Shown: positions 5,188 through 56,100 of the stretch, in pieces
Layout of the letters: each line of letters begins with the position of its first letter
Numbering within the stretch: the first letter of the stretch is position 1
Source: Nitrosopumilus sp.
Lineage (GTDB): Archaea > Thermoproteota > Nitrososphaeria > Nitrososphaerales > Nitrosopumilaceae
Direction of reading: 5' to 3'
Assembly: GCA_965214775.1 (NCBI GenBank)
Contig: OZ243974.1
Coordinates: 1,984,001 to 2,048,000, forward strand
Length of the DNA: 64,000 nucleotides
Program-made: the position numbers and the translations under genes
The notes under the pieces: model-generated
Databases searched by the model: none
What the model was told of the DNA's origin: nothing
What the model saw: the letters and a program-made list of their open reading frames with translations, nothing else

Positions 5188-5232
5188 TGCAACACGGAGA
5201 CCGCTATGTTATATAACCAACATGGTTCATTT

Positions 5233-6478
5233 CAGTAGTTCCGATTGTGGCCTGAAAATAAGGCAAATTGACAGATTTTTATGATCACTTGGATCTATAG
5301 GGGGAACTTTTAGCAATTTCTCCATGACAAAAAGTGCCAGGGCCGCTCAAAAGCCGTACGGACACAGGGAGCGCAAGATGTTCCAGAACGCCGTCTCGGC
5401 AGTAGGCATGAAGTTCTCTGACAGACACAACGCAATATACGATGAAACGGATGCAGCTGCGCTTCTGGCAACGATGTCCAAGGAGCGCATGTGCGCAGAA
5501 CAGGCCGCAGAGATACTCCGGGACTCTGCAGGCCGCAGCCCCGGCGCCGACTGGCTGCTTGGCAAGCTGGGCCAGGTGGACTATGAGACGATGCACAAGA
5601 GGGCCGACAAGATCCTGCGCAGGACCGTCACAGACTCCATCAAAGGTGGCCTGATTGGAAAATCCCCGATCATAGCCATCGACAAGACCAAGATCCCGCG
5701 GTACGACCGCAATCCGGACATGACCCACAAGATAAAGTACAGGGGGCCGGGCACCCGCACGGCTGAGGCATACATCACTGCAAGAACAGTAGGACAAAAG
5801 CACCAGACGCACCTTGCGTGCCTTCCGGTGACCAGGGACGCGTTTAACCCCGAATTCGTGCGTAAATTGCTGCAAACCATCAAGAGAATGCACATCAGGC
5901 CGCAGATGGTCCTGATGGACAAGGAGTTTTACTCAGTTGACGTACTCAACACGATAAATAATGCAGGATTGCGGTTCATGACTCCTGCAGTATGCACCAA
6001 GGGAGTTGAGAGGGCCATACAGGAGCACATAGACGGGCACAGGGATGCAGTCAGCAAGTATACCATATCCTCTGGCAGCAGCAAGATAAGATGCAACCTG
6101 ATAATACTGGAAAGGGAGGATAAAAACAAGAAAAAGTTCCACATCGCCTTTGTCACCAACATGACCAACTGCATGCCGGAGGATTTGTTTGAGCTTCCCG
6201 AGGAGTACCGCAAGAGGTGGGGAATAGAGACCGGATACCGGGACGTCAAGAGGGCCATGCCGCGCACCTGCAGTCGGAACGATGCCATAAGACTCATACT
6301 GTTCTACCTGTCGCTTGGAATGTCTAACATCTGGATGATCGCAAGATCATGGTGCAAAAAAAAGAAGATCAAGCTCAAGGTGCTGCTTGCCCGGATTATA
6401 AGATGGTGTATGAGACCATGGAACAAAAAGCCCCCCGATCCGGGCTAGGGCAGGCCGGGGTCACAATCGGAACTACTG
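5233..6478 (+). mobile_element. ISH3-type (IS4-like) element, apparently intact
   Basis: TIR CAGTAGTTCCGATTGTG at both ends; direct repeat TCATTT on both flanks. Confidence 0.9.
5324..6448 (+). CDS. ISH3-family DDE transposase
   Basis: IAIDKT, MDKEFYS and YRKRWGIETGYR motifs. Confidence 0.9.
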   Translation: MTKSARAAQKPYGHRERKMFQNAVSAVGMKFSDRHNAIYDETDAAALLATMSKERMCAEQAAEILRDSAGRSPGADWLLGKLGQVDYETMHKRADKILRRTVTDSIKGGLIGKSPIIAIDKTKIPRYDRNPDMTHKIKYRGPGTRTAEAYITARTVGQKHQTHLACLPVTRDAFNPEFVRKLLQTIKRMHIRPQMVLMDKEFYSVDVLNTINNAGLRFMTPAVCTKGVERAIQEHIDGHRDAVSKYTISSGSSKIRCNLIILEREDKNKKKFHIAFVTNMTNCMPEDLFELPEEYRKRWGIETGYRDVKRAMPRTCSRNDAIRLILFYLSLGMSNIWMIARSWCKKKKIKLKVLLARIIRWCMRPWNKKPPDPG

Positions 6479-6544
6479 TCATTTGCATTCATTTGCGTTC
6501 ACTTGTAATACAAAATAAATAGCCCTGATCCCAAAAAATGCAGA

Positions 6545-37213: not shown

Positions 37214-37521
37214 ACCAATATCTAGCATCAGTCTTCCCAGAAGTAACCCAAAATAGCCAATTTTGACCGAAACAGATCAATTAGGGCAGTCCTAGAAGGT
37301 ACTCATGCCTTACCAAAAGAACCAACTGAGACGTGATGCTCTTAACAACCCGCGCATATATCAAGATATCCTAAAGACCAGTCTTCCCATCTATGTTAAA
37401 ACGCCCGGGCCCTTTAGCGGCTGCGGATTGTGTCTCTCTGATCCACGCCTAGTTTAATATGGGCCGCTTTATAGCTTACGCTGGGTACAGGGGGGATCCG
37501 TTCCCTGCATGCGGCTGCGTG

Positions 37522-38652
37522 TTACTTGTCTGTTTTCTCCCTGACCTCGGGTGGCATCTTGGATGCTGCAGCTGCTGCTGCTGCGGCCTCTGCCCGGGCC
37601 AGCTTGAGTTTGTACGTCTTGGGATCGTGTCCGGAGTACGGCGTCCTTGTCACGAGCATGGACCATACGATCCTGATCATCTTGGTTGCCACGTGCGTCC
37701 TGGCCACCATGGGCCTTGCGCTGTTCCTCTTCTTGGATCTTGCATGGATCCTTCCCATCCTCTCGTCGTATATGGCGGCCGTCCGCACAGTCTGTAGCAT
37801 CGCCCAGTTGCACCTGCGGTTGGATGTCTTTCTCATTTTGCCGTGGTACTCCCTGTCGCCGGACTGGTGAACCGTAGGACACATGCCGAACCACGCAACA
37901 AGCTTGCCCGGGGTCTTGAACCTGGCAATGTCCCCGATCTCAGATACCAGCAGCATGGCCGTAAACGAGTCGATTCCCGGAATGCTCATCAGGATCCTCG
38001 CATCCTCGCTGACGCTGGCCTGCGCCGCTATCCTTGTCTCGATGTCCGCGATCTCCTCTGTGATCTGCCTGACCCTTCTGGCATGCACGCCGAGAACCGC
38101 ATCATCGTTTGGGTCGCCAAGATTCAGGGCGAACAGCTGCCCGAGTCCCTTGTTGGAGTACACGTGCGACGAGTCGATCCTCTCGTCATACCTGTCCAGG
38201 AGGCTGTGGATCTGGTTGATCACGGCCGTCCTGTCCTGCACGAGGCCGATCCTGCAGCGCATCAGCTCCCTGACGCTCCGGAGTTCGGGCGGTGCCACGT
38301 AGCACTCGGGAACCATTCCGGCCCTCAGGGCGTTTGCAAGCTTTCTTGCGTCGATCGGGTCCGTCTTTACGTCCATGTCGGAGATTATCCGCATCTTGTA
38401 GGTGTTGGCAAGCTTGATTGGTATTCCCGCGGACTCGAATGCCTCGTAGGTCTTGAGCCACATGTTGCCCGTGGACTCGCAGACGGCCTGGCAGTTCTTT
38501 CCGCCGTAACTGAGCTTTGCCTTCCTGGCAAACATGCCTGCCTCTCTGGATGTGTTCTCGTATGACGTCTCTTCCAGGATCCTCTTTTTGTCGTCCATAA
38601 TGCACGCTACGCATTTTCTCTTTCCAATGTCTATTCCTATGCTGTATTGCAT
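37522..38652 (-). CDS. IS110-family DEDD recombinase
   Basis: GIDIGK, CESTG, KTDPIDA, SIPGI, PTVHQSG. Confidence 0.93.
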   Translation of the reverse strand: MQYSIGIDIGKRKCVACIMDDKKRILEETSYENTSREAGMFARKAKLSYGGKNCQAVCESTGNMWLKTYEAFESAGIPIKLANTYKMRIISDMDVKTDPIDARKLANALRAGMVPECYVAPPELRSVRELMRCRIGLVQDRTAVINQIHSLLDRYDERIDSSHVYSNKGLGQLFALNLGDPNDDAVLGVHARRVRQITEEIADIETRIAAQASVSEDARILMSIPGIDSFTAMLLVSEIGDIARFKTPGKLVAWFGMCPTVHQSGDREYHGKMRKTSNRRCNWAMLQTVRTAAIYDERMGRIHARSKKRNSARPMVARTHVATKMIRIVWSMLVTRTPYSGHDPKTYKLKLARAEAAAAAAAASKMPPEVREKTDK

Positions 38653-38683
38653 CTTTTCTCGCTTTCCTCTTTTTGGTGGATCA

Positions 38684-38790
38684 GAGGCTGCACACATCTA
38701 TCAGCACGCCGTGGTGCACGAACACTGCAGCTCGGAATTACCGCATTCAGAAGTCAGCGCGCGGGGCGCATGGGAAGACAGCGGTTGATC
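38684..38790 (-). ncRNA. predicted bridge/seek RNA of IS110 family 1
   Basis: target loop GTCTTCCCA + ACTTCTG; donor loop GTGTTC + ATAGATG; each enclosed by a stem with an internal hairpin. Confidence 0.8.
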
Positions 38791-40151
38791 CACACCACCA
38801 CCGCTACGGGCCCGGGCGTTTTTAACCCGTGTTCAGAAGTACCACGTCAAATTATCCCCGGCTCGAAACAATTCAAATAATGATGCCTGCATATCCGCAT
38901 GTCGTTTCTTGCACCTCCACGAGTCGGTTACTTCTGGGAAGACTGAAGACCGTTGGCGACGGCATGGCCCCGTGCATCAAGACATCAGACAAGCACAACG
39001 CCATCTATGCTACAGACGACTTTATCAGGTGCCTGACGCGCGCGGCCGTATCCAACAGGCAGGTGGCAGGCTGCACGATGTCTGCACGTGACGTGCCAGC
39101 GGCTCCTGGAATGCCCCGCAATCCCACCGACGAGTGGATCCGCAGCGTCGCCATAAGATCCAAGCCCGGCCAGATCCAAGGCTGCCTTGCAGAAACCGTG
39201 GGCCGGCAGCTGAACCAGCTGAGGGATATGGGGATGATCACAAATGGCCAAAAGACGGATGCGGCAATAGACATGCACCTGATACCGCGCTATGACAAAA
39301 AGTACGGTAGTGAGCTTGTACGCTCCAAGAAGAAGAGCGGGACGATAGTCTGAGCGTTACATCACCATACAGTGCATCGTAAAGCACTGCCGCCTTGTGC
39401 TGGGAGCACTGCACATGCCGGCCCTTGAGGATACGGCCGATTTCGTGCGTAAAATCATCGATTCTGCACGCCGCACAGGCGCCGATCTTGGAGTCGTGAT
39501 GCTGGACCGCGAGTTCTTTTCGGCCGCAGTCATCTCCAAGCTGGATGCGGCCGGTGTCAGATGTATCATACCGTGCAAGAACACGGATGCAGTCGTTGCC
39601 ACCCTCAACGAGAATGGCGACGTGAAAAAAAGAAGGGAGGTCAAATCGGTCATATCCGGCACCACAAAGTCTGCACGGTACACGATGGTCATCACAAAGA
39701 GAAGGAAGAAGAGATCAGGCAAGACCGATGTGGAGAAGCTGCCGGCGCACGAGCGGCTCATCGGATTTGCAACCAACGTGCCCGGAATAGATCCGAACGA
39801 GTACAGCCGCAGGTGGGGGATCGAGACTGGATACAGGATGATAGAGAACGCAAGGGTCAGGACCCACAGCAAGAGCCCGGTCGTAAGGATGCTGTACTTT
39901 GTGTACTCGGCTGCGGTCTTCAACGCGTGGGTCATGGCAAACGCGATGATGAGAAACTTTACGGGGATCGTTACAGAGGATCCCCTGATCACCCAGCAGT
40001 GCCTCAATGACGTGATCAAGCGTGGTATGTCGGACTATAGGATGCTGCCCCAACCCCCTCCACCGGTGCCTCCATGAGTTACTTCTGGGAAGACTGGGCA
40101 AGCGAAAACCTTCAAATAATTTTTAATCCTAGTATGTTTAACAGGTTTCAT

Positions 40152-41335: not shown

Positions 41336-42095
41336 TAGTACCACGGCTACCAATTGATTACAAAAAGGACAATTTTTTTCAACCAAAGGATCTAAGATCT
41401 ACCAATCCCATATACACATGAAAGGAAAGAAGGAATTACCGGTGGGAACAGCGTTCCTACACGGGACAGCAGGCAAGGACGAGCTTTTTAGGATGCACAA
41501 GTCCGAAAAGGATGCCAAGGCGGCAATCCGGCTCCTTGCATACCATATGAGAAAGTGCGGCGCGAGCATATATGATATTGCCGAGAAGCTGAGCAGGCCG
41601 TATGGAACCGTACGATACTGGCTGGTGCGTGCGCACAAGCACGGCCTGGAGGGCAGGTTTGACATAAAGCACGGCGCCCCGTGCAGGCTCGACAAGAAAC
41701 AGATTGAACAGCTGCTGCGTACAGACCTGATCAAGGGCCCGGACAACTGCGGCTTTAAGGCCACAACATGGACAGGATCGCTGGTCATTGCCCACGTCAA
41801 AAAGAAGTTCGGCATCACGTATGCAGAAACGAGCATGTACGACCTGCTGCCCAGAATCGGCTTCTCATGCAGAAAGCCCAGGCCAAAACACCCAAAATCA
41901 GCCTCAGAACCCGAGAAAAAGGAGTTCGAGGAAAAGACCGGGCGGTGCACAAAGTACTATTCAAAAAAGGGGTACACGGTAATGATAGGCGACGAGGTAG
42001 GAGTTTATCCCGGAGTGGAACGTCAAGAACATCTGGTACGCCATAGGAAAGCCGGTCTATACGCCGTCCAACCTGTCAAGGAAGAGGTCCTACGT
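41336..42095 (+). mobile_element. IS630-family element (family C), frameshifted and truncated
   Basis: near-identical to the reverse complement of 54454-55588. Confidence 0.88.
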
Positions 42096-45811: not shown

Positions 45812-46225
45812 ATGTCATCAGGACAAATGCCCCCGTGGCTCCAAGAACAGCTAATGAAGATGCAGCAAATACAGCAAAACCTTCAGTCTATCCTGACTCA
45901 GAAGCAGCATCTCGAAATTGAAAAAGCCGAGACCCAAAAGGCATTGGAGGAACTCCGAAAGGCAGGTGACGGTGATGCCGTATTCAAGCATGCAGGGGCA
46001 GTCTTGGTAAAATCCACAAAGCAAGAAATGATTGACGAGCTTGAGGAAAAGCAGGAGCTGGCAAAAACTAGGGCGACTGTGCTTGAAAAACAAGAGGAGC
46101 GCGTCAAGGAAACCCTCAAAGAGCAGGAGGCAAAAATCACCGAACTGATGAAAGGCAAGAATGCAGGCGCTTCTACTTCTACTACTACTCCACCTGCTTC
46201 TGCAGAGGAAAACCCCCGAAGATAG
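45812..46225 (+). CDS. pfdB: prefoldin beta subunit
   Basis: coiled coil with FKHAGAVLVK hairpin. Confidence 0.92.
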   Translation: MSSGQMPPWLQEQLMKMQQIQQNLQSILTQKQHLEIEKAETQKALEELRKAGDGDAVFKHAGAVLVKSTKQEMIDELEEKQELAKTRATVLEKQEERVKETLKEQEAKITELMKGKNAGASTSTTTPPASAEENPRR

Positions 46226-46337
46226 CTTCATTCAAAGATATTCCGCCAAGATCAACTGGCTGAAATTTTGTAACCATATCAGTAGACGCTATATGAAATC
46301 TTATCTGTATCCTGTGATATACTATTACTGTTGGGCC

Positions 46338-46448
46338 TGAGAGTCGATCGGAACTTACCATGTACAAGGGTGTTCAGTAGACTGACTCGTAACAGCAGGC
46401 GGAAAGCAATGTACCGCGCAGAAGACGGTGAATGGAAGATTCCGCCCG
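46338..46448 (+). ncRNA. predicted bridge/seek RNA of IS110 family 2
   Basis: stem GAGTC/GACTC enclosing ATCGGAACT and TCAGTAG; stem GGCGGAA/TTCCGCC enclosing ATGGAAG. Confidence 0.78.
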
Positions 46449-46483
46449 GATCAGGCATTTTGATCAGAAAGGAGGTGATAACA

Positions 46484-47562
46484 TGATCAGCGTAGGAATA
46501 GACGTACACAAAAAGACATGCGTTGCAGCAGTAAAGGATGACTCTGGCAAGCTGCTAGAGCGATCCAAGTTTGAGAACAGCGTTTTGGCAACAACGAATT
46601 TTGCAACATATCTCAAGGAACAATACTGCGGACAGCTGCCAATAAAGGCAGTATGCGAGTCCACTGCCAACTACTGGATTATCGTACATGACACGCTTGA
46701 GGACTGCGGGATAGACACCGTGCTGGTGCATCCGGCAAAGGTCAAGGTGATAGCGCACGCCAAGATAAAGGACGACCGCGTAGATGCAAATATACTTGCC
46801 GACCTGCTCAGAGCAGACATGCTGCCAGAGTCGTTTGTGCCTGACAAGCACTACAGGGACCTCAGAATGCTGGGCAGGACCAGAACCGGCAAGACGGCAG
46901 AAGCCACCAGATGCAAGAACAAGATACACGCCATACTTGCAAAGTATGACTATGACCTGCCCACGCACAGCACGTTTACGATTTCTGCCATACAGCACAT
47001 CCAAGACGGGATAAAAATGTCAGAGATTGACGCGGCAACTGTGAAGATGTACCTTGATGACATCAAGAGGATACAGGATCAGATAAGGGATCTGGAGCGC
47101 AGCATTGCCTCTGTATCCGAAAGCGATACGAGGGCCAAGACGATTATGACCATGCCTGGAATAAGCCATGTCATTGCACTGACGATAATCTCTGAGATAG
47201 TCGATGTCAAGAGGTTTGCCACTCCAGAGAAGCTCGTCTCGTATGCAGGGCTGACTCCCTCGCGCAGGGACAGCGCAGACAGACACAAAGGAGGCGGCAT
47301 AACAAAGCAGGGATCCGTGTGGCTGCGCCAGGCCATGGTCAACTCGGCCACAGTCGCAGTACGAAACGACCCAAGGCTTGGTTCGATATATGAAAGGATA
47401 GGAAAGAGACGTGGATGGCAAAAGGCAAAGATTGCAGTTGCAAGACACATGCTGGAGATAATCTGGCACATGCTGACAACCGAAGAGGAGTACCGCACTC
47501 AGAACAAGGCTCTCACGCAGAGAAAGTATAAGAGGATGCATCGCATAGCAACATTGTCCTGA
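46484..47562 (+). CDS. IS110-family DEDD recombinase
   Basis: GIDVHK, CESTA, KDDRVDA, TMPGI, AGLTPSRRDS; GGAGGTGA ribosome-binding site upstream. Confidence 0.93.
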
Positions 47563-47627
47563 TTCGGAACATCACGCTGGCAAGGGTCCACGGTAGGATT
47601 AGGTACGATTTCATATGGGAGTTCCTA

Positions 47628-48721
47628 TACTGACGATCATTGAAAATTTCGCCTGATTACACGTCTTGTGAAGGTTTATAGATCTCCGCCATGGCCATTC
47701 TGACATGAACAAGACGAAAATCCTCACGGATGCCATGCGTGTGGAAAAGGATAACAGGGTTTATACCAGAATCCTGGCGGTGCGCTCCGTACTGCTTGGC
47801 AACACCACTGCACAGACCGCAGAGATTGCCGACGTGACACAGCGTACCGTACAGATATGGGTCGAGAGGTTTGAGCTTGACGGCGTTGACGGTCTCCGTG
47901 ACTCCCACAACAGGGGCAAAAAGCCAAAGGTCCCAGTCGGCAGGATAAAAAAGATCGCCATGAGGCTGCGCAGGATGGAAAAGCTCACCCCGAAGAAGAT
48001 GCGCAACTGGGTGCACCGCAAACTGCATGTCACATACAGCGTTGGAAGCATCAGAAGAATCCTGCGCACGATGGGATTCTCGCTAAAGACGTCAACCACC
48101 AAGCTGGCAAATGCTGCCGACGCAAAGGCGGTAAGACGGTGGCAAAGGGAGGCAAAAGACACGATTAGGCTTGCAAAAAGGCGCGGATTCAGGATAACCG
48201 TACAGGACGAGTCGATATTCGTCAGTACGGGAAGGGACGGCAAAAAGTTCTGGTCGCCAGTGGGGGACAGGATCGAGGTGCAACGATCCGGCAGAAGGGA
48301 GCGCGTCGTGGTATACGGAACGGTTGCAGACAACGGAACCAGGCTGATGCGCACATACGACAAGTTCAACAGCATAAACTTTGTGCGTTATCTCAAGCAG
48401 GCGCACAAAAAGTGGGGAAAGGTTCTGATTGTGATGGACAACGCAGCACAGCATAAGACCGAAAGGGTCCGCAAATACCTGGAGAAAAATCCTGACGTTA
48501 TCCTGCTGTACCTGCCGGTAGCTAGGCCGGAGCTGAGCGCCATAGAGCCAATCTGGAAGGATGCCAAGTACATGCTGGTCACATCTGCCTTTTACGATTC
48601 GGTAGATCACCTCAAAAGGGATGTCTCGGAATACTTTAGGACGTGTTCCATCAAGGTTGACATCTACAAATATCTTGAGCGCCGCGTGTAAGGGAGGCGA
48701 AATTTTCAATGATCGTCAGTA
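47628..48721 (+). mobile_element. IS630-family element (family B); transposase 47705-48691
   Basis: 26-bp perfect TIR TACTGACGATCATTGAAAATTTCGCC; TA flanks; QDES, DNA, PELSAIE. Confidence 0.92.
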
Positions 48722-48723
48722 TA

Positions 48724-48883
48724 GTCCACCTCCCGTCCTTGCTTGTTATCTCGTGCAGGAACGCGGTTCCCGCCGGCAGTTCCTTCCTTCCTTTCATACG
48801 TCTGTATGGGACTGGCAGGATCTTGGATCCTTTGGTTGAAGAAAATCGTCCCTTTTGTGATCAATTGGTAGCCGAGGATACTA
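48724..48883 (-). mobile_element. 5' remnant of IS630 family C
   Basis: homologous to 55440-55588. Confidence 0.8.
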
Positions 48884-49041
48884 CGGAATCTCCCATTCAC
48901 CGCCTGCGCGGCACGTTGCTTTCCGCCTGCTACTGCGAGTCAGCCTACTGAGCACCCTTGTACATGGCAAGTTCCGATCGACTCTCAGGCCCAACAGTAA
49001 TGTTGGATCACAGGATACGGATAAGATTTCATATAGCGTCT
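48884..49041 (-). mobile_element. IS110 family-2 upstream end with a second bridge-RNA copy (recombinase lost)
   Basis: reverse-complement homolog of 46284-46445; junction ...CT|ACTGA. Confidence 0.88.
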
Positions 49042-49282
49042 ACTGAGATGGGCGATTATTTGAGATAGACACGGCGTACGGTTGTAACAGGTCGGGCTCT
49101 GGAAGCTCAGGCGTGAATCTTGCAATCCCGGAGGTCACTAGGGCAGCACCTCCAACCAGCAGGCTGATTTGGAAGAATCACAACACATAAAGATCGTTGG
49201 ATCTGCCTTTCCGGTATTGATCGGGGATCCTAGCATTACGGACGTGGATTGGAACAATCCCGACGTGATCCGCCTGTTTGAA

Positions 49283-49406
49283 CACATGAAGTCCAGGATG
49301 GAGGCAGTTGAAAGAGAAAACCTGCACATGAAGTCCAGGATGGAGGCAGTTGAAAGAGAAAACCTGCACATGAAGTCCAGGATGGAGGCAGTTGAAAGAG
49401 AAAACG
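49283..49406 (+). repeat. 42-bp tandem repeat x3 (HMKSRMEAVERENL) in the IS66 coiled coil
   Basis: seen directly in the sequence. Confidence 0.92.
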
Positions 49407-49414
49407 AACAGCTA

Positions 49415-51602
49415 TAGCAATGATCAGAAGTCTTTGAGCCAAAACGGGATCATTCGAAAAGTATATGGATCGCCTAACCGGCGCAATGGCATGGCAAAAG
49501 AAACAGACAAAAGCCTGTCAGAGGCCATGCGCAAAGAAAAGGATGTCAAAGTCTACAAGAAGATCATGGCGCTGATGTTTGTGCTAGAAGACGACGTGGG
49601 CGTGCCTGAGACTGCAAGAAGGGTCCGGTGCAGTGAGAATTCCGTGCGCAGCCGGCCGGCGAGGTTTTCGGAGGACGGCATGGACTGCCTCCGGGATCTT
49701 CCCCGTTCCGGATGCAGGCCAAAGGTGGACAGAGAAAATATTGCCGCCATAATGGACCTGTTCACTGCATGCAAAAGTACCGATGTTATGACGGTACGCG
49801 ATGACATAAGGGATGCCACCGGGACAGAATACAGCACAGGACATGTCCGGAGAATGATGCGCCAGCACGGCCTGTCGCGCCGCAAGGTGCAAAACGTGCA
49901 TGTCAACCATGCCACCCCAAGCTCCGTATACTCGTGGCAACGGTATCTTGAAAACGTGCGGATTCCGTGCCTGAAAAGAGAGGGTTTTACGCTGGTGTCA
50001 TCTGATGAGGCGTTCTTCGTGCAGGGCGCATACGACAGATACGTGTGGGGTCCGGTCGGCACCAGAAGCGTGGCATCATATTCGGTGGACCACACAAAGG
50101 TGGCCGTGTTTGGAAGCATCACAGAAGACGGCAGAAGGCTGTTCAGGACGTTTACGGGATCGTTTAGGTCAGTGCAGTTCATACAATGTCTGGAGGCGTT
50201 GCGCGCCAAGTTTGGCAAGGTTGCCGTCTTTTGCGACAGGTGGAGTGTGCACAGATCTATTGACATCGCAGAATATCTGGCAGGTCATCCCGATATCAGG
50301 CTGATAATGATCCCGAAGGGATCGCCGTACCTCAATATCGTGGAAGAATGCTGGAACCTGGGCAAGCCTGTCGTTTTCAGGGGGATAGTGTACAGGAAAA
50401 TCAGCGAGCTGCGGCACACCATATCCGAGTACTACAGGACGGTGTCGTTTGCCCACCTTAGCATGTTCTATTGTACGAAAATTAGGTCGCACTAATTTGA
50501 GGAGGATTGCAGGGGATTACTTTAGGCTTTACCGATCAAGAAAACCGATGGTTGTAAGGCTCGAGGCAAAGCAGATCAGATACGCAGTGACGCAATGTGC
50601 AGGGGGACGAAAGCCCTCGGAGGTGGCCCCGGAGATAGGCGTCACGACAAGGCACGTCCAGCGGATGTATGCCCGGTTCAGGAAGACAGGCGACACGCAC
50701 CACGTGCCGCTCAAGCCGGGAAGGAAAAAGAGCGCCCCGGTTCCCGACGGGGACGTGCGCGCAGTCCTGGAGGAGTACAAACACAGTGCAGCAGGGGTGG
50801 TTCATACGGCCAAGAGGCTGCGAAGGCAACTCGATATAAGCTACTACGAGGTATACAGGATAATGAAAGAAAACGGGCTGGTGACGCCATCGGCTGCAAA
50901 ATCAATGCCCAGAAAATACGTCCGCTTTGAGCGCAAATACTCCAATGCCATGTGGCACGTGGACTGGCATACCATGAAGGATCCGCGCTTTGCAGGGCTC
51001 AATTTGGTCACGTTCCTAGACGACTCGTCCAGGTGCGTGACTGGTGCGGGCCTGTTCAGGGAGGCCACCTCAGAAAACGTCGTGGCGGTCCTGCGGCAGG
51101 CCGTGGCCCAGTTCGGCGCGCCTGCCACCATACTCTCAGACAACGGCAAGTGCTTTGTCGGGGCGCGCTCGGATCCGAAGAAGAAGAAGAGTCCGCCCAA
51201 GGGCGGATGGAGGCCCACTGCCTTTGAGGAGGAGCTGCTCAACTGCGAAATCGGGCTGATAAACTCCAGGCCGTATCACCCGCAGACCAATGGCAAACTG
51301 GAGAGATTCCACAGGAGCATCGAGGAGGAGATATGGAACCACAAGAGTCTGTCTGCATACATCGACTACTATAACGAGGACAGGCTGCACTGGTCGCTTG
51401 ACATCGACAACTACGAGACGCCGCTGCGGGCATTCTCCGACAGGGAGGCCACAGAAGCGATCAGGAAAAGCAACCCAAGATGGATGGAGGAGGACATTGG
51501 TGATGGTGCGACATAATTTTCATATAATACACCCACCTTAGCATGTACAAGTACATTTACAGATCGCCGGTCAAAGCCCTCAATTACTTGTGACCGTTGC
51601 TA
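49415..51602 (+). mobile_element. IS630 family A copy interrupted by IS481
   Basis: highly similar to 7487-8597; TA flanks. Confidence 0.9.
50467..51531 (+). mobile_element. IS481-family element; transposase 50548-51516
   Basis: TIRs; 15-bp direct repeat CCCACCTTAGCATGT. Confidence 0.9.
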
Positions 51603-53187: not shown

Positions 53188-56100
53188 ATGATTGGCAAGA
53201 CGCTACTGGGACTGTTCTTGGCAATCGGATTATCTGCAATGCCCGCATTTGCAGAAACTGACACTCCTTACAAACAGTTTCAAAGTGGTATCGCGCTAGA
53301 GGAGATACAGTGCCGGGATTCAAAGACGCTGATGGAGACCACGCGCGGAACGCCTGCGTGCGTCAGCGCTGATTCCGTGCAAGAGCTGCGGCAGAAGGGC
53401 TGGACAGCGGTACGGCAGCAAGGCCATCCGGACATGCCAGCCGAGCCACATGCAAAAACGATAACCACCAGAAACACGGACGAACCGCTGATGGCATACT
53501 CTGGACTGGGATTTTCCTGGCCCCAATACAGCGTCACGTTTCCAGAGCAGGTCAGAATAGGCGAGCAGTTTGAGGTGGTGATCGACTATACGTTCATCAT
53601 ACCAGTCCTTGACGACGACGAGCACGGCGTAGAGTTTCTGAGCTACGAGGAGTCCGAGAGATATTGTACCGAGGAATGCCTGGAGCGTATAGAGTGGCTG
53701 GGTTCGAAGTTCTATATAGACAGAAATGTGTATGTTGATCTCATAAACGCCACAGACTACGTGTTCAAAAGACAGGGAAACGACACCAGGCATCTTCCCA
53801 TCAGGGGATTTGAGTACGGCACGATACCTCCCATACTCAACGGCACGCATCCGCAGCAAAAGACGCTCACGTTTGCAATCAACGAGCCCGATACCGAGTA
53901 CCCCTTTGGAGAAATAAGCATAGGCTTTGCTGGCGATATGGGGGGATGGATCTACTTTTACGTCGAACCCGACAACACCGTCCGCCTCAGCGACGAACCG
54001 ATCGTCGTTGAAGACGAGGGAATTCCACGACTGGGACTGAACATACCGGACCGTCCTCCCAGAGCTCCCCTTGAGGATCCGTTGAGTGGAGTGAGCAACC
54101 CGGAGGAGCTAATGCATGATCTGGCAGCGTTCTTCGAGGTGCTATACCCAGAAGTCAGCGCGGAGGACGAGATGCGCCAGGCAAACTTTCCAGAGGAGTT
54201 CATCGACAAGTTCTTTGGGCTGTATCCAGACCTGAGAATACAGTCCCATGCGCCTACACTGCAATTCATACTGCCGTCTGCGCATGCCCAGCCATCCCCC
54301 ACTTCTTTTGTTTACGGAAATGCGTATTACTATGATAGTGACGACAACATAGTCCCCTTGAAAAGTACGGAAGTATGCGCCTACACAAAACCCCACCGAA
54401 CTTTTGAGCCGGTTTACAATGGCCAGACGCATATATGCGACAAGACCAATACGTAGTATCTACGTCAGCCATTTGTTCATCTTTACCACCTTTATCTCGC
54501 CCCTGCGCGTCATACTGCGCAGTGATCTCTGCATCTCCTTGACGGTCTTGTAAAGGCAGTTTGAAGTCGCCTTTTTGAACCCGCGCCACTGCCCCTCCGA
54601 GTTGTTAAGCTCCGGCGCGTACGGCGGCAGGTACTTTAGCACCACGTCTCCGTTCCACTTGGCCATCTTTCTATTGAGTTCTGCTGACTTGTGGTACGAT
54701 GCGTTGTCGACAAACAACAACACCTTGCCGTACTTGCGGCGCAGTGTCCTGAGAAACTTGTAGAATGTTCCCGTGTTGGCCTTTTCGTAAAAGCGATAGT
54801 CAAACCTGTTTCTTGAGAGGGCCCCTATGACATAGAACCGCTTCCTAGACAGGCTGACGGGCGTATAGACCGGCTCTCCTACGGGGTACCAGCTGTTCTT
54901 GACGTTCCATCCCAGTATGAACATGGACTCGTCGCCTATCATTACCGTGTACCCCTTTTTTGAATAGTACTTTGCGCTCTGCCTAGCTTTTTTTTTGAAC
55001 TCCTTTTTCTCGGATTCTGAGGCTGATTTTGGGTGTTTTGGCCTGGGCTTTCTGCATGAGAAGCCGATTCTGTGCAGCAGGTCGTACATGCTCGTTTCTG
55101 CATACGTGATGCCGAACTTCTTTTTGACGTGGGCAATGACCAGTGGCCCTGTCCATGTTGTGGCCTTAAAGCCGCAGTTGTCCGGGCCCTTGATCAGGTC
55201 TGCGCGCAGCCGTTCAAGCTGTTTCTTGTCGAGCCTGCACGGGGCGCCATGCTTTATGTCAAACCTGCCCTCCAGGCCATGCTTGTGCGCACGCACCAGC
55301 CAGTATCGTACGGTTCCATACGGCCTGCTCAGCTTCTCGGCAATATCATATATGCTCGCGCCGCACTTTCTCATGTGGTATGCAAGGAGCCGGATTGCCG
55401 CCTTGGCGTCCTTCTCGGACTTGTGCATCCTAAAAAGCTCGTCCTTGCTTGCTATCCCGTACAGGAACGCTGTTCCCGTCGGTAATTCCTTCTTTCCTTT
55501 CATGTGTATATATGGGACTAATAGCTCTTAGATCCTTTGGTTGAAAAAAATTGTCCTTTTTGTGATCAATTGGTAGCCGAGGATACTACGTCCGGCTACT
55601 TTGCACTCCTTTTTGTTCCACGAGGTATTAACTTGTATCTTGGCGTGCATACTGAAACCGACTACGTTAGAGTTGCCAAATACTTTAGCAGTCCACACAT
55701 TCACTACTCTTCTTCACCTGTTGCTATTACAAGTGGAATAGCAAGCACAGGTGACTTTGCTATACCCTCAAGCGGAGTGAGTTTCATTGTGTTTAAAGTG
55801 TTGAGAGAACTTGGTGCCATAGACCAGTGGTACAAAGACACTTTTAGGTATGATCCTCCCTTTGTGACCGCAAACTGGAGTTCAGAAGGATGCCGTGTGG
55901 GCCCAGGCGCACAAGGTACCACGATGTATCTTGCGCATACACACAAGTTCGACCATAATGGACAACCTGAACCGTGTGAAGGCACAGTCACATCAATCAC
56001 CCACCCTGACACCATAGCTCATGAGTTTGCGCACATTGTCTTTTTTGATCATTATAATTTGCAAAATTCCCGTTATCCGTACTCTGCAATAAACAATCCA

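Follow-up and report, generated by a model that had tools for sequence, protein, structure and literature searches.

The 64-kb window analysed here (the whole stretch of DNA, G000:C1:1984001-2048000, where G000 is this genome, of a Nitrosopumilus sp.; positions without a genome handle are those of the window) carries at 46284-47621 an intact IS110-family insertion sequence (IS) in the broad ISfinder sense. We consider it most probable, at roughly 85%, that this element is RNA-guided, that an RNA encoded in its own left end selects the insertion site, and that it has a hybrid layout. It is the second IS110 family of the window (family 2); family 1 lies at ~37388-38835 on the minus strand, has the core TG, and its protein is 32% identical to that of family 2.

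Element ends were mapped by BLAST of the element against G000, yielding 28 left ends and 14 right ends. Every mapped copy starts with AGACG and finishes with GGGAG, with AG at both ends, indicating that AG is the crossover dinucleotide. Three copies are full-length (the window copy, 2746642 on the plus strand and 2751230 on the minus strand), 97-100% identical and with open 376-aa frames, the remainder in G000 being truncated or internal-deletion derivatives. In the element, a non-coding left end of 199 nt is followed by a Shine-Dalgarno-like GGAGGTG, an open reading frame (ORF) of 359 aa and a right end of 59 nt, with 10-bp subterminal inverted repeats placed 5 nt inward of each end. Its transposase matches PF01548 (E 6.3e-28), PF02371 (E 4.9e-23) and NF033542, "IS110 family RNA-guided transposase" (248.6 bits, cut-off 140), and aligns with the IS621 transposase (PDB 8wt6) at E 4e-12, the Ser of ESG standing opposite the Ser of DSA here. 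The features of IS110 sensu lato are thereby present: DEDD RuvC-like and Tnp domains with the conserved Ser, a core dinucleotide at both junctions, few flank classes (i.e., site-specific insertion), no terminal inverted repeats (TIRs) and, as predicted from the sequence, a structured RNA in a long non-coding end that matches both the target and the element's own ends. The transposase motif GLTPSRRDSA conforms to the IS1111-group pattern GL-P----S, with A in place of G as its last residue. A first-pass annotation of this DNA had placed the junctions at TCAGT/AG...AG/TTCC and had the target match stop at an adjacent IS630, and we confirm both, the junctions lying at 46279-85 and 47620-25. The IS630-family element, which starts 4 nt past the right core, is part of the history of the site and not of the IS110 element. 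Contigs of four runs over 46100-47800, fragmented by repeats, held no right-to-left-end joint and no empty site and are uninformative either way; the joints in them merely mirror other genomic copies.

We propose that the insertion site is chosen by an RNA encoded in the 199-nt left end. A target loop between two helices would present a 9-nt 5' guide, pairing with AG and the 7 nt to its right on the transposase-sense strand, and a 7-nt 3' guide, pairing on the other strand with AG and the 5 nt to its left. A second loop would read the element's joined ends likewise, its 3' guide equalling ATGGG-AG and its short 5' guide complementing nt 4-9 of the left end. Recombination at AG would then set the element 7 nt inside an ISH3-like TIR with its RNA end outward. 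Such a mechanism is the known bridge- or seek-RNA one, an ordinary case of IS110/IS1111 site choice, and is not new.

The evidence that carries this reading is the covariation of guides with flanks. A pattern search of G000 for the target loop found 25 loops, 23 of them with a recognisable left end. In these 23 copies, the first 5 nt of the 3' guide agree with the 5-nt left flank at 99 of 115 positions, a value attained by none of 100000 permutations (mean 49.0); 12 copies match perfectly and 21 at 4/5 or better. When only the 17 distinct 10-nt flanks are counted, agreement is 72/85 (0/100000 permutations, mean 36.4). At least five guide programmes coexist in G000 (TCAGT, TTTAT, CTTAT, CAAAC and GTA(T/A)G), and the flanks switch with the guides. 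The right-flank side is less well supported than the left. The eight right-end-linked copies match the reverse complement of the 5' guide at 4-6 of 7 positions, and the six distinct events among them at 29/42, which 564 of 100000 permutations attain; these are modest statistics, and the regular match is limited to the three to five core-proximal positions.

The same relationship extends to other genomes of the class. Protein relatives (E <= 1e-30) occur in 33 of 201 sampled genomes and 19 of 57 genera, and a covariance model, R1, built from 14 RNAs, found matches in 10 of 151 sampled genomes and 7 of 48 genera. G117, of a different genus, holds eight copies with four programmes, of which seven match the left flank at 5/5 and one at 3/5. 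Overall, 3' guide and left flank agree at 71/80 positions in 16 copies of G117, G036, G153, G012, G197 and G138. The model additionally yielded 17 new loci, and the 16 that could be evaluated again gave 71/80, with nine perfect; among these new loci, the genomes that had no part in building the model (G129, G084, G053 and G133) gave 46/50. The register of the 5' guide is uneven, its core complement lying one position later in G117 L063, G012 and G084, and in G036 the 5' guide lacks the terminal CT. From these comparisons it is very likely that the programmable guides in the upstream RNA are real, and the first-pass claim of a second IS110 family with such guides is supported.

Also in G036 (L072/L111), we noticed one copy in a TAGAC-AG site whose guide is CCAACAG, while another copy there has the guide TAGACAA; the former is possibly a trans-directed insertion.

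The layout of the target loop was found as first annotated. Between the two arms of its outer stem, the 5' guide is bordered by single G and T nucleotides, an inner hairpin follows, GT precedes the 3' guide and ACT closes the loop. The resulting 1-9-1-hairpin-2-7-3 spacing is indeed common to family 1 with unrelated letters (ACCGC/T/GTCTTCCCA/T/GCGCCCCGCGC/TG/ACTTCTG/AAT/GCGGT). RNAalifold on the 14-sequence alignment recovers three helices, namely the outer stem and inner hairpin of the target loop and the inner hairpin of the donor loop. Across their 14 base pairs, 99.0% of cells are standard pairs, compared with 29.6-42.3% when partners are slid by one to three columns, and 8 of the 14 pairs show compensatory (two-sided) changes. 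None of 500 shuffles attained the observed paired share or covariation score, and the most variable alignment columns are the guides between the helices. The outer stem of the donor loop (GGCGGAA/TTCCGCC) was excluded from the pair count owing to a one-column shift by MAFFT in some rows. The minimum-energy single-sequence structure, which pairs the two guides together, was dropped in favour of the comparative one.

The donor loop reads the element's own ends. Its 3' guide is ATGGGAG in the other aligned copies, equal to the element's right end ATGGG-AG. On the left side, the 5' donor guide of relatives in G117, G153 and G012 equals the reverse complement of left-end nt 4-9 at 6/6 and covaries with the left end. 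In G117, ATAGCA occurs with AGATGCTAT and ATGGCA with AGATGCCAT, the left end AGATGCT pairing with the former guide and AGATGCC with the latter; G153 combines ATAGTA with AGATACTAT and G012 ATAGTG with AGACACTAT. The three core-proximal positions of this guide are unpaired, which accounts for the left donor guide having been called weak at first: covariation in the relatives indicates a real guide of 6 nt set back from the core. No full 9-nt 5' donor guide adjoining the core was found in G000, where just the distal 6 nt align.

In both families of the window and in all relatives examined, the 3' guide is identical to the flank beside the RNA end and the 5' guide complements the sense strand of the far flank. 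In the available parts of the published work, the left target of IS621 abuts the RNA-bearing left end (Durrant 2024; Hiraizumi 2024), seekRNAs of IS1111 type carry the top-strand complement first and the IS110-type ISEc21 has the reverse order (Siddiquee 2024). For the same source, as far as available, what marks an IS1111 element is its subterminal repeats together with a non-coding region downstream; a few exceptions are listed there by position, with no analysis of their guides (ISMtsp17 upstream; ISHvo10 and ISAcp5 on both sides). Of the IS110-group traits, the present element has the upstream non-coding region (199-nt left versus 59-nt right end), whereas the bottom-strand match does not stand 5' in the RNA and the subterminal repeats, at 10 bp, are neither absent nor 2-3 bp. 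Of the IS1111 traits, it has subterminal repeats within 7-17 bp (ATATGAAATC/GATTTCATAT) and the top-strand complement 5' of the bottom-strand match, whereas the non-coding region is not downstream. With its RNA upstream and an IS1111-type guide order and repeats, the layout is therefore a hybrid of IS110-type RNA position and IS1111-type guide order. Viewed in the strand frame of the guides, the core is CT, as it is in IS621, and it is the RNA-transposase unit that is inverted between the ends. An IS621-like guide order, which the upstream RNA and the 9-nt and 7-nt guide lengths would suggest, is scarcely credible, given that the 7-nt 3' guide equals the flank beside the RNA end in 23 copies here and 32 in relatives, that the donor loop follows the same order, and that 10-bp subterminal repeats are not of IS110 type. 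The first-pass target had been written in the IS621 convention and needs correction: relative to RNA and transposase, the true flanks are its reverse complement.

As first proposed, the guides find their best match in the genome in the TIR of an ISH3-like IS. In the window, the 14/14 match at the left end of an intact copy was confirmed on the minus strand, and the right-end match of 13/14 also holds, its span ending at 6479 and not 6478. At up to two mismatches, 0.40 matches are expected in the window by chance, and two or more arise in 5 of 100 shuffles. Across G000, we found 49 sites at that threshold, 12 of them exact and four with one mismatch. All 16 are ends of one ISH3-like IS with the TIR CAGTAGTTCCGATTGTG and six complete copies of 1245-1246 bp, whose transposase matches NF033541 (ISH3) at E 3.1e-39 and 134.9 bits, under the cut-off of 225. 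Another 14 sites have two mismatches and belong to the ends of a second ISH3-like family, 1504-1510 bp in length. By arithmetic, far below one exact site would be expected per such genome.

Could the two stretches be no functional guides at all, being acquired target DNA or chance resemblance while the protein picks the site? We regard this as very unlikely. It would draw on the weakness of the window-only match, given the shuffle result above, and on the RNA, whose transcription is without support and whose left end folds no more stably as a single sequence than shuffles do (z -0.13). Yet the two stretches are on opposite strands with respect to their flanks and are split by a conserved hairpin with compensatory changes; stretches and flanks switch jointly, through at least five programmes here and through further ones in at least six other genomes; and 12 exact 14-mer sites occur where far below one is expected.

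The fold score is one of several points that weigh against an RNA-guided element with a left-end RNA, and we gather the others here. Two of the 23 copies match the left flank at just 1-2 of 5 positions, and several copies occupy the site of a programme other than that of their own guide, which points to some action in trans or recombination between copies. The 3' donor guide of the window copy has a private change (ATGGAAG), and the 5' donor guide in G000 matches at only 4/6 (AAAGCA versus the expected ATAGCG). Fifteen of the 16 best-matching TIRs are empty, the remaining one holding a 97-nt remnant. Rfam 15, run over the whole window at gathering score, gave no match; either the release lacks a bridge-RNA family or the RNA is too distant. 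As to method, where a relative's genome gave no more than two copies, the left end was located by a conserved motif and not by comparing copies, and the "top strand" of both published accounts was read as the transposase-sense strand. Finally, direct observation extends to where the element ends and what its core is, to which family the protein belongs, to how the guides covary with flanks and ends, and to the conservation of the RNA helices, whereas production of the RNA, its binding by the transposase and a circular intermediate would follow by analogy with work on IS621 and ISEc11.

The occupied sites show what each programme aims at. Programme A, carried by all three intact copies, is directed at ISH3-like TIRs. 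The first-pass statement that the element sits inside such a TIR is accurate in kind; the intact copies are in the two-mismatch TIR of the second family and not in the exact-match one. The right flank of the window copy is TTCCTAT, or TTCCTAG once the IS630 is removed, agreeing with the guide at 6/7 or 5/7; after TTCC and the IS630-family element, the sequence is no longer that TIR. In the other two intact copies the right flank, TTCCTAG(A/G)TGTAC, is the TIR of the second family. Programme B inserts ~54 nt inside IS630-family elements, between TIR and start codon, which is not a TIR, and programmes C and D hit repeated sequences of G000. Programme E, of a 67%-identical sub-lineage, is directed at an IS66-family element (181.7 bits, cut-off 180) and its 91-bp miniature inverted-repeat transposable elements (MITEs), in both at the TIR, with 170 sites at up to two mismatches and at least nine right ends running into TTTACCCCTC.... 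Elsewhere, the rebuilt empty site of G117 occurs twice, inverted and 1.19 kb apart, flanking a 390-aa ORF with what appear, by reading of its sequence, to be integrase-type (rve-like) motifs, and the G129 site equals nt 13-19 of a TIR found 34 times, the reversed control giving 0. The conclusion that this clade repeatedly aims at the ends of other transposons stands and generalises.

We also observed an empty programme-B site (GGTTTAT-AG-ATCTCC) at 47674-47688, inside the adjoining IS630-family element; three other copies of this IS630 family hold a family-2 derivative at the programme-B site (G000 181545, 1124124 and 1252183).

Family 1 follows the same strand order as family 2. Its 3' donor guide is ATAGATG, its subterminal repeats span ~18 bp with one gap (by reading), and its copy in the window lies in the right TIR of a ~113-121-bp MITE (TACTTC-TG-GGAAGAC); it targets a 121-bp MITE and a 1301-bp ISH3-like family at their TIR, for which 169 sites were counted. 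The earlier picture of two programmes aimed at two ISH3 TIRs is thus right in that both aim at TIRs and too narrow in that family 2 alone has at least five programmes, one of them at an IS66-family TIR.

The first-pass annotation had further suggested a general system of transposon against transposon, and the targets in G117 and G129 are TIRs, as that idea holds; TIR insertion is published, however, and amounts to ordinary site choice, programme B does not hit a TIR, and a benefit to the host is without support. A covariance-model scan of the kind that it had proposed returned the R1 matches given above, and guide targets, mapped by hand in three genomes, include TIRs as well as the non-TIR site of programme B. 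A stronger version, in which the element is kept to serve the host as an RNA-guided system that knocks out transposon ends, seems improbable to us. In its favour, at least four programmes in three genomes aim at TIRs, and the second-family copy at 2747979-2749476, both TIRs of which hold inward-pointing IS110 copies, is 91% identical to its family, compared with 99.4-100% for the five free copies, as would fit an immobilised copy. It has to contend with the empty state of 15 of the 16 best-matching TIRs, with an element that is multicopy and decaying into fragments and mini-elements, with a patchy distribution (protein in 33/201, RNA in 10/151 genomes) and with the absence of a linked host gene. 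Furthermore, repeats (REP, attC and Tn21 TIRs) are already the usual safe sites of the family (Durrant 2024, refs 10, 11 and 24, in the parts available).

Six derivatives in G000:C1 are mini-elements of 480-489 bp (181545-182024, 807932-808417, 2726222-2726710, 2784516-2785004, 2787934-2788413 and 2831291-2831779) that share one of two internal deletions, leaving 1-206+1051-1338 or 1-386+1227-1338. All retain the entire RNA region as well as both ends but no transposase; those of the second type are at two or more different sites, and programmes B, C and D are confined to mini-elements or truncated copies. Since mini-elements tend to be found where their own RNA would send them, the RNA may mainly direct its own DNA circle. 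The wider picture, of a clade in this archaeal class that parasitises other transposons, reprograms its guides and spawns 480-489-bp guide-RNA mini-elements whose RNA acts mainly on its own circle, is tentative and in our judgement rather unlikely as a whole. If it were true, the mini-elements would be the first non-autonomous transposons with their own targeting information, borrowing the recombinase alone; insertion 7 nt inside a TIR would disable the target transposon, and the clade would shape IS load. No paper on mini-elements that carry a guide RNA was found in the literature searched.

Two one-sided remnants were also seen. A left-end-only remnant (G000:C1:1348480-1348710, minus strand) consists of nt 1-97 and ends exactly at the guide-coding TCAGTAG, from where it runs on as the rest of an exact-match ISH3-like TIR (G000 1348569); its appearance is that of an excision in which the guide-coding DNA served as a false left junction. 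A right-end-only remnant (G000:C1:1209796-1209830, minus strand) reads TCAGTAG, the element's last 21 nt and then TTCCTAGATGTAC. A preprint on IS621 "half-match" recombination, seen in part, offers a possible frame for both.

What goes beyond a new family member is 1) the hybrid layout, 2) the number of co-resident programmes, 3) the guide-bearing mini-elements, and 4) the copies in sites of other programmes. The hybrid is intermediate between the architectures published for the two groups, which makes it relevant to the evolution of one from the other; considered as a circle, it differs from IS621 solely in the orientation of the joined ends. G000 preserves a natural within-genome record of guide reprogramming, with at least five target programmes, one donor programme and the sites kept, in an archaeal setting where such elements are uncharacterised. 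The mini-elements and the copies in "wrong" sites give a handle on the extent to which the RNA acts in cis, and the system offers compact orthologues for genome engineering (359 aa and an RNA of ~130 nt) from a new lineage.

Table 1. Features of the window that bear on the family-2 element, its guides and its targets (window coordinates).
Feature	Position	Strand	Remark
Exact 14/14 target match	5232..5245	-	left end of intact 1246-bp ISH3-like IS (5233-6478)
13/14 target match	6466..6479	+	right end of same 1246-bp ISH3-like IS
Family-1 3' guide ACTTCTG	38754-38748	-	
Family-1 5' guide GTCTTCCCA	38779-38771	-	
Left half of insertion site, TCAGT	46279..46283	+	1 nt outside ISH3-like TIR plus first 4 nt of TIR
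IS110-family element, 1338 bp	46284..47621	+	includes AG core at both ends (46284-85, 47620-21)
Left subterminal inverted repeat ATATGAAATC	46291..46300	+	reverse complement of 47607-47616
Candidate bridge/seek RNA, target and donor loop	46329..46458	+	R1 match (G000 2030329-2030458)
Target-loop outer stem, first arm GAGTC	46341..46345	+	
5' target guide ATCGGAACT	46347..46355	+	reverse complement of AGTTCCGAT; complements AG and right flank on transposase-sense strand
Target-loop inner hairpin	46357..46371	+	
3' target guide TCAGTAG	46374..46380	+	identical to left flank and core
Target-loop outer stem, second arm GACTC	46384..46388	+	
Candidate 5' donor guide AAAGCA	46403..46408	+	4/6 against reverse complement of element nt 4-9
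3' donor guide ATGGAAG	46432..46438	+	equals right end ATGGG and AG save one private change (46436)
Transposase gene, 359 aa	46483..47562	+	ATG after GGAGGTG at 46471-77
Right subterminal inverted repeat GATTTCATAT	47607..47616	+	pairs with 46291-46300
Right half of insertion site, TTCC then TA	47622..47627	+	truncated by adjoining IS630-family element
IS630-family element beside site	47628..48721	+	NF033545 180.7 bits, cut-off 100; TA duplicated at 47626-7 and 48722-3
Truncated inverted left-end copy, nt 1-161, 89% identical	48884..49051	-	target loop kept; follows ...TCAGT; G000 2033041

Other repeats were noticed around these features. A third IS110 family is present in G000 as 378-aa frames and truncated 142-aa ones, with a left end that begins GTAACCATATGTGTCTC (e.g., 1533379, 2401541 and 1626191 on the plus strand and 635528, 1906822 and 2404562 on the minus strand). 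The same 10 nt, GTAACCATAT, occur in the left end of this third family and just outside the split TIR at the three intact family-2 copies (46270-46279 in the window). In the window, a ~33-nt unit (...catgaagtccaggatggaggcagttgaaagagaaaacctg...) is repeated three times in tandem at 49290-49395, upstream of a second IS630-like ORF (49392-50495), and a ~150-bp repeat at 48734-48883 is 81-86% identical to ~20 places in the genome, two of them in the window (~41336-41481 and ~55440-55588).

The literature searched yielded no paper that treats bridge or seek RNAs of IS110 elements from these archaea; supplementary files may list archaeal members or the guide orders of IS1111 relatives with an upstream RNA. 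The comparisons that follow rest on the parts of the published accounts that were available. With IS621 and the IS110 group, the element shares the recombinase of DEDD/RuvC-like and Tnp domains, the dinucleotide core and the upstream RNA in a long left end; IS621 likewise has two loops, each with a 9-nt 5' guide and a 7-nt 3' guide that includes the core. It differs from IS621 in that the right flank is bound through its sense strand by the 5' guide, which leaves the ends in inverted orientation with respect to the RNA-transposase unit, and from IS621 and the IS110 group in its repeats (10 bp versus 2-3 bp), in a remote protein (E 4e-12) and in its archaeal host. With the IS1111 group (ISEc11, ISPa11 and ISKpn4), it shares the guide order, subterminal repeats with short terminal extensions and natural reprogramming; there, the RNA lies downstream of the transposase (Siddiquee 2024), whereas here it lies upstream.

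In its choice of site, the element resembles the IS110-family members IS4321 and IS5075, which insert into Tn21-family TIRs (Partridge and Hall 2003, as ref. 10 of Durrant 2024; Siddiquee 2024) and likewise occupy a fixed place and orientation inside the TIRs of other transposons. Those elements are bacterial, confined to the Tn21 family and described with one programme, whereas here several programmes coexist in a single genome and address ISH3-like and IS66-family TIRs, with relatives addressing TIRs of yet other ISs. Finally, the mini-elements recall the "modular transposition" of ISPpu9 from Pseudomonas putida (Pares-Guillen et al. 2025), in that parts of an element move separately; the modules in ISPpu9 involve a downstream small-RNA gene, whereas in the 480-489-bp derivatives described here the transposase is lost and the guide RNA is retained along with both ends.

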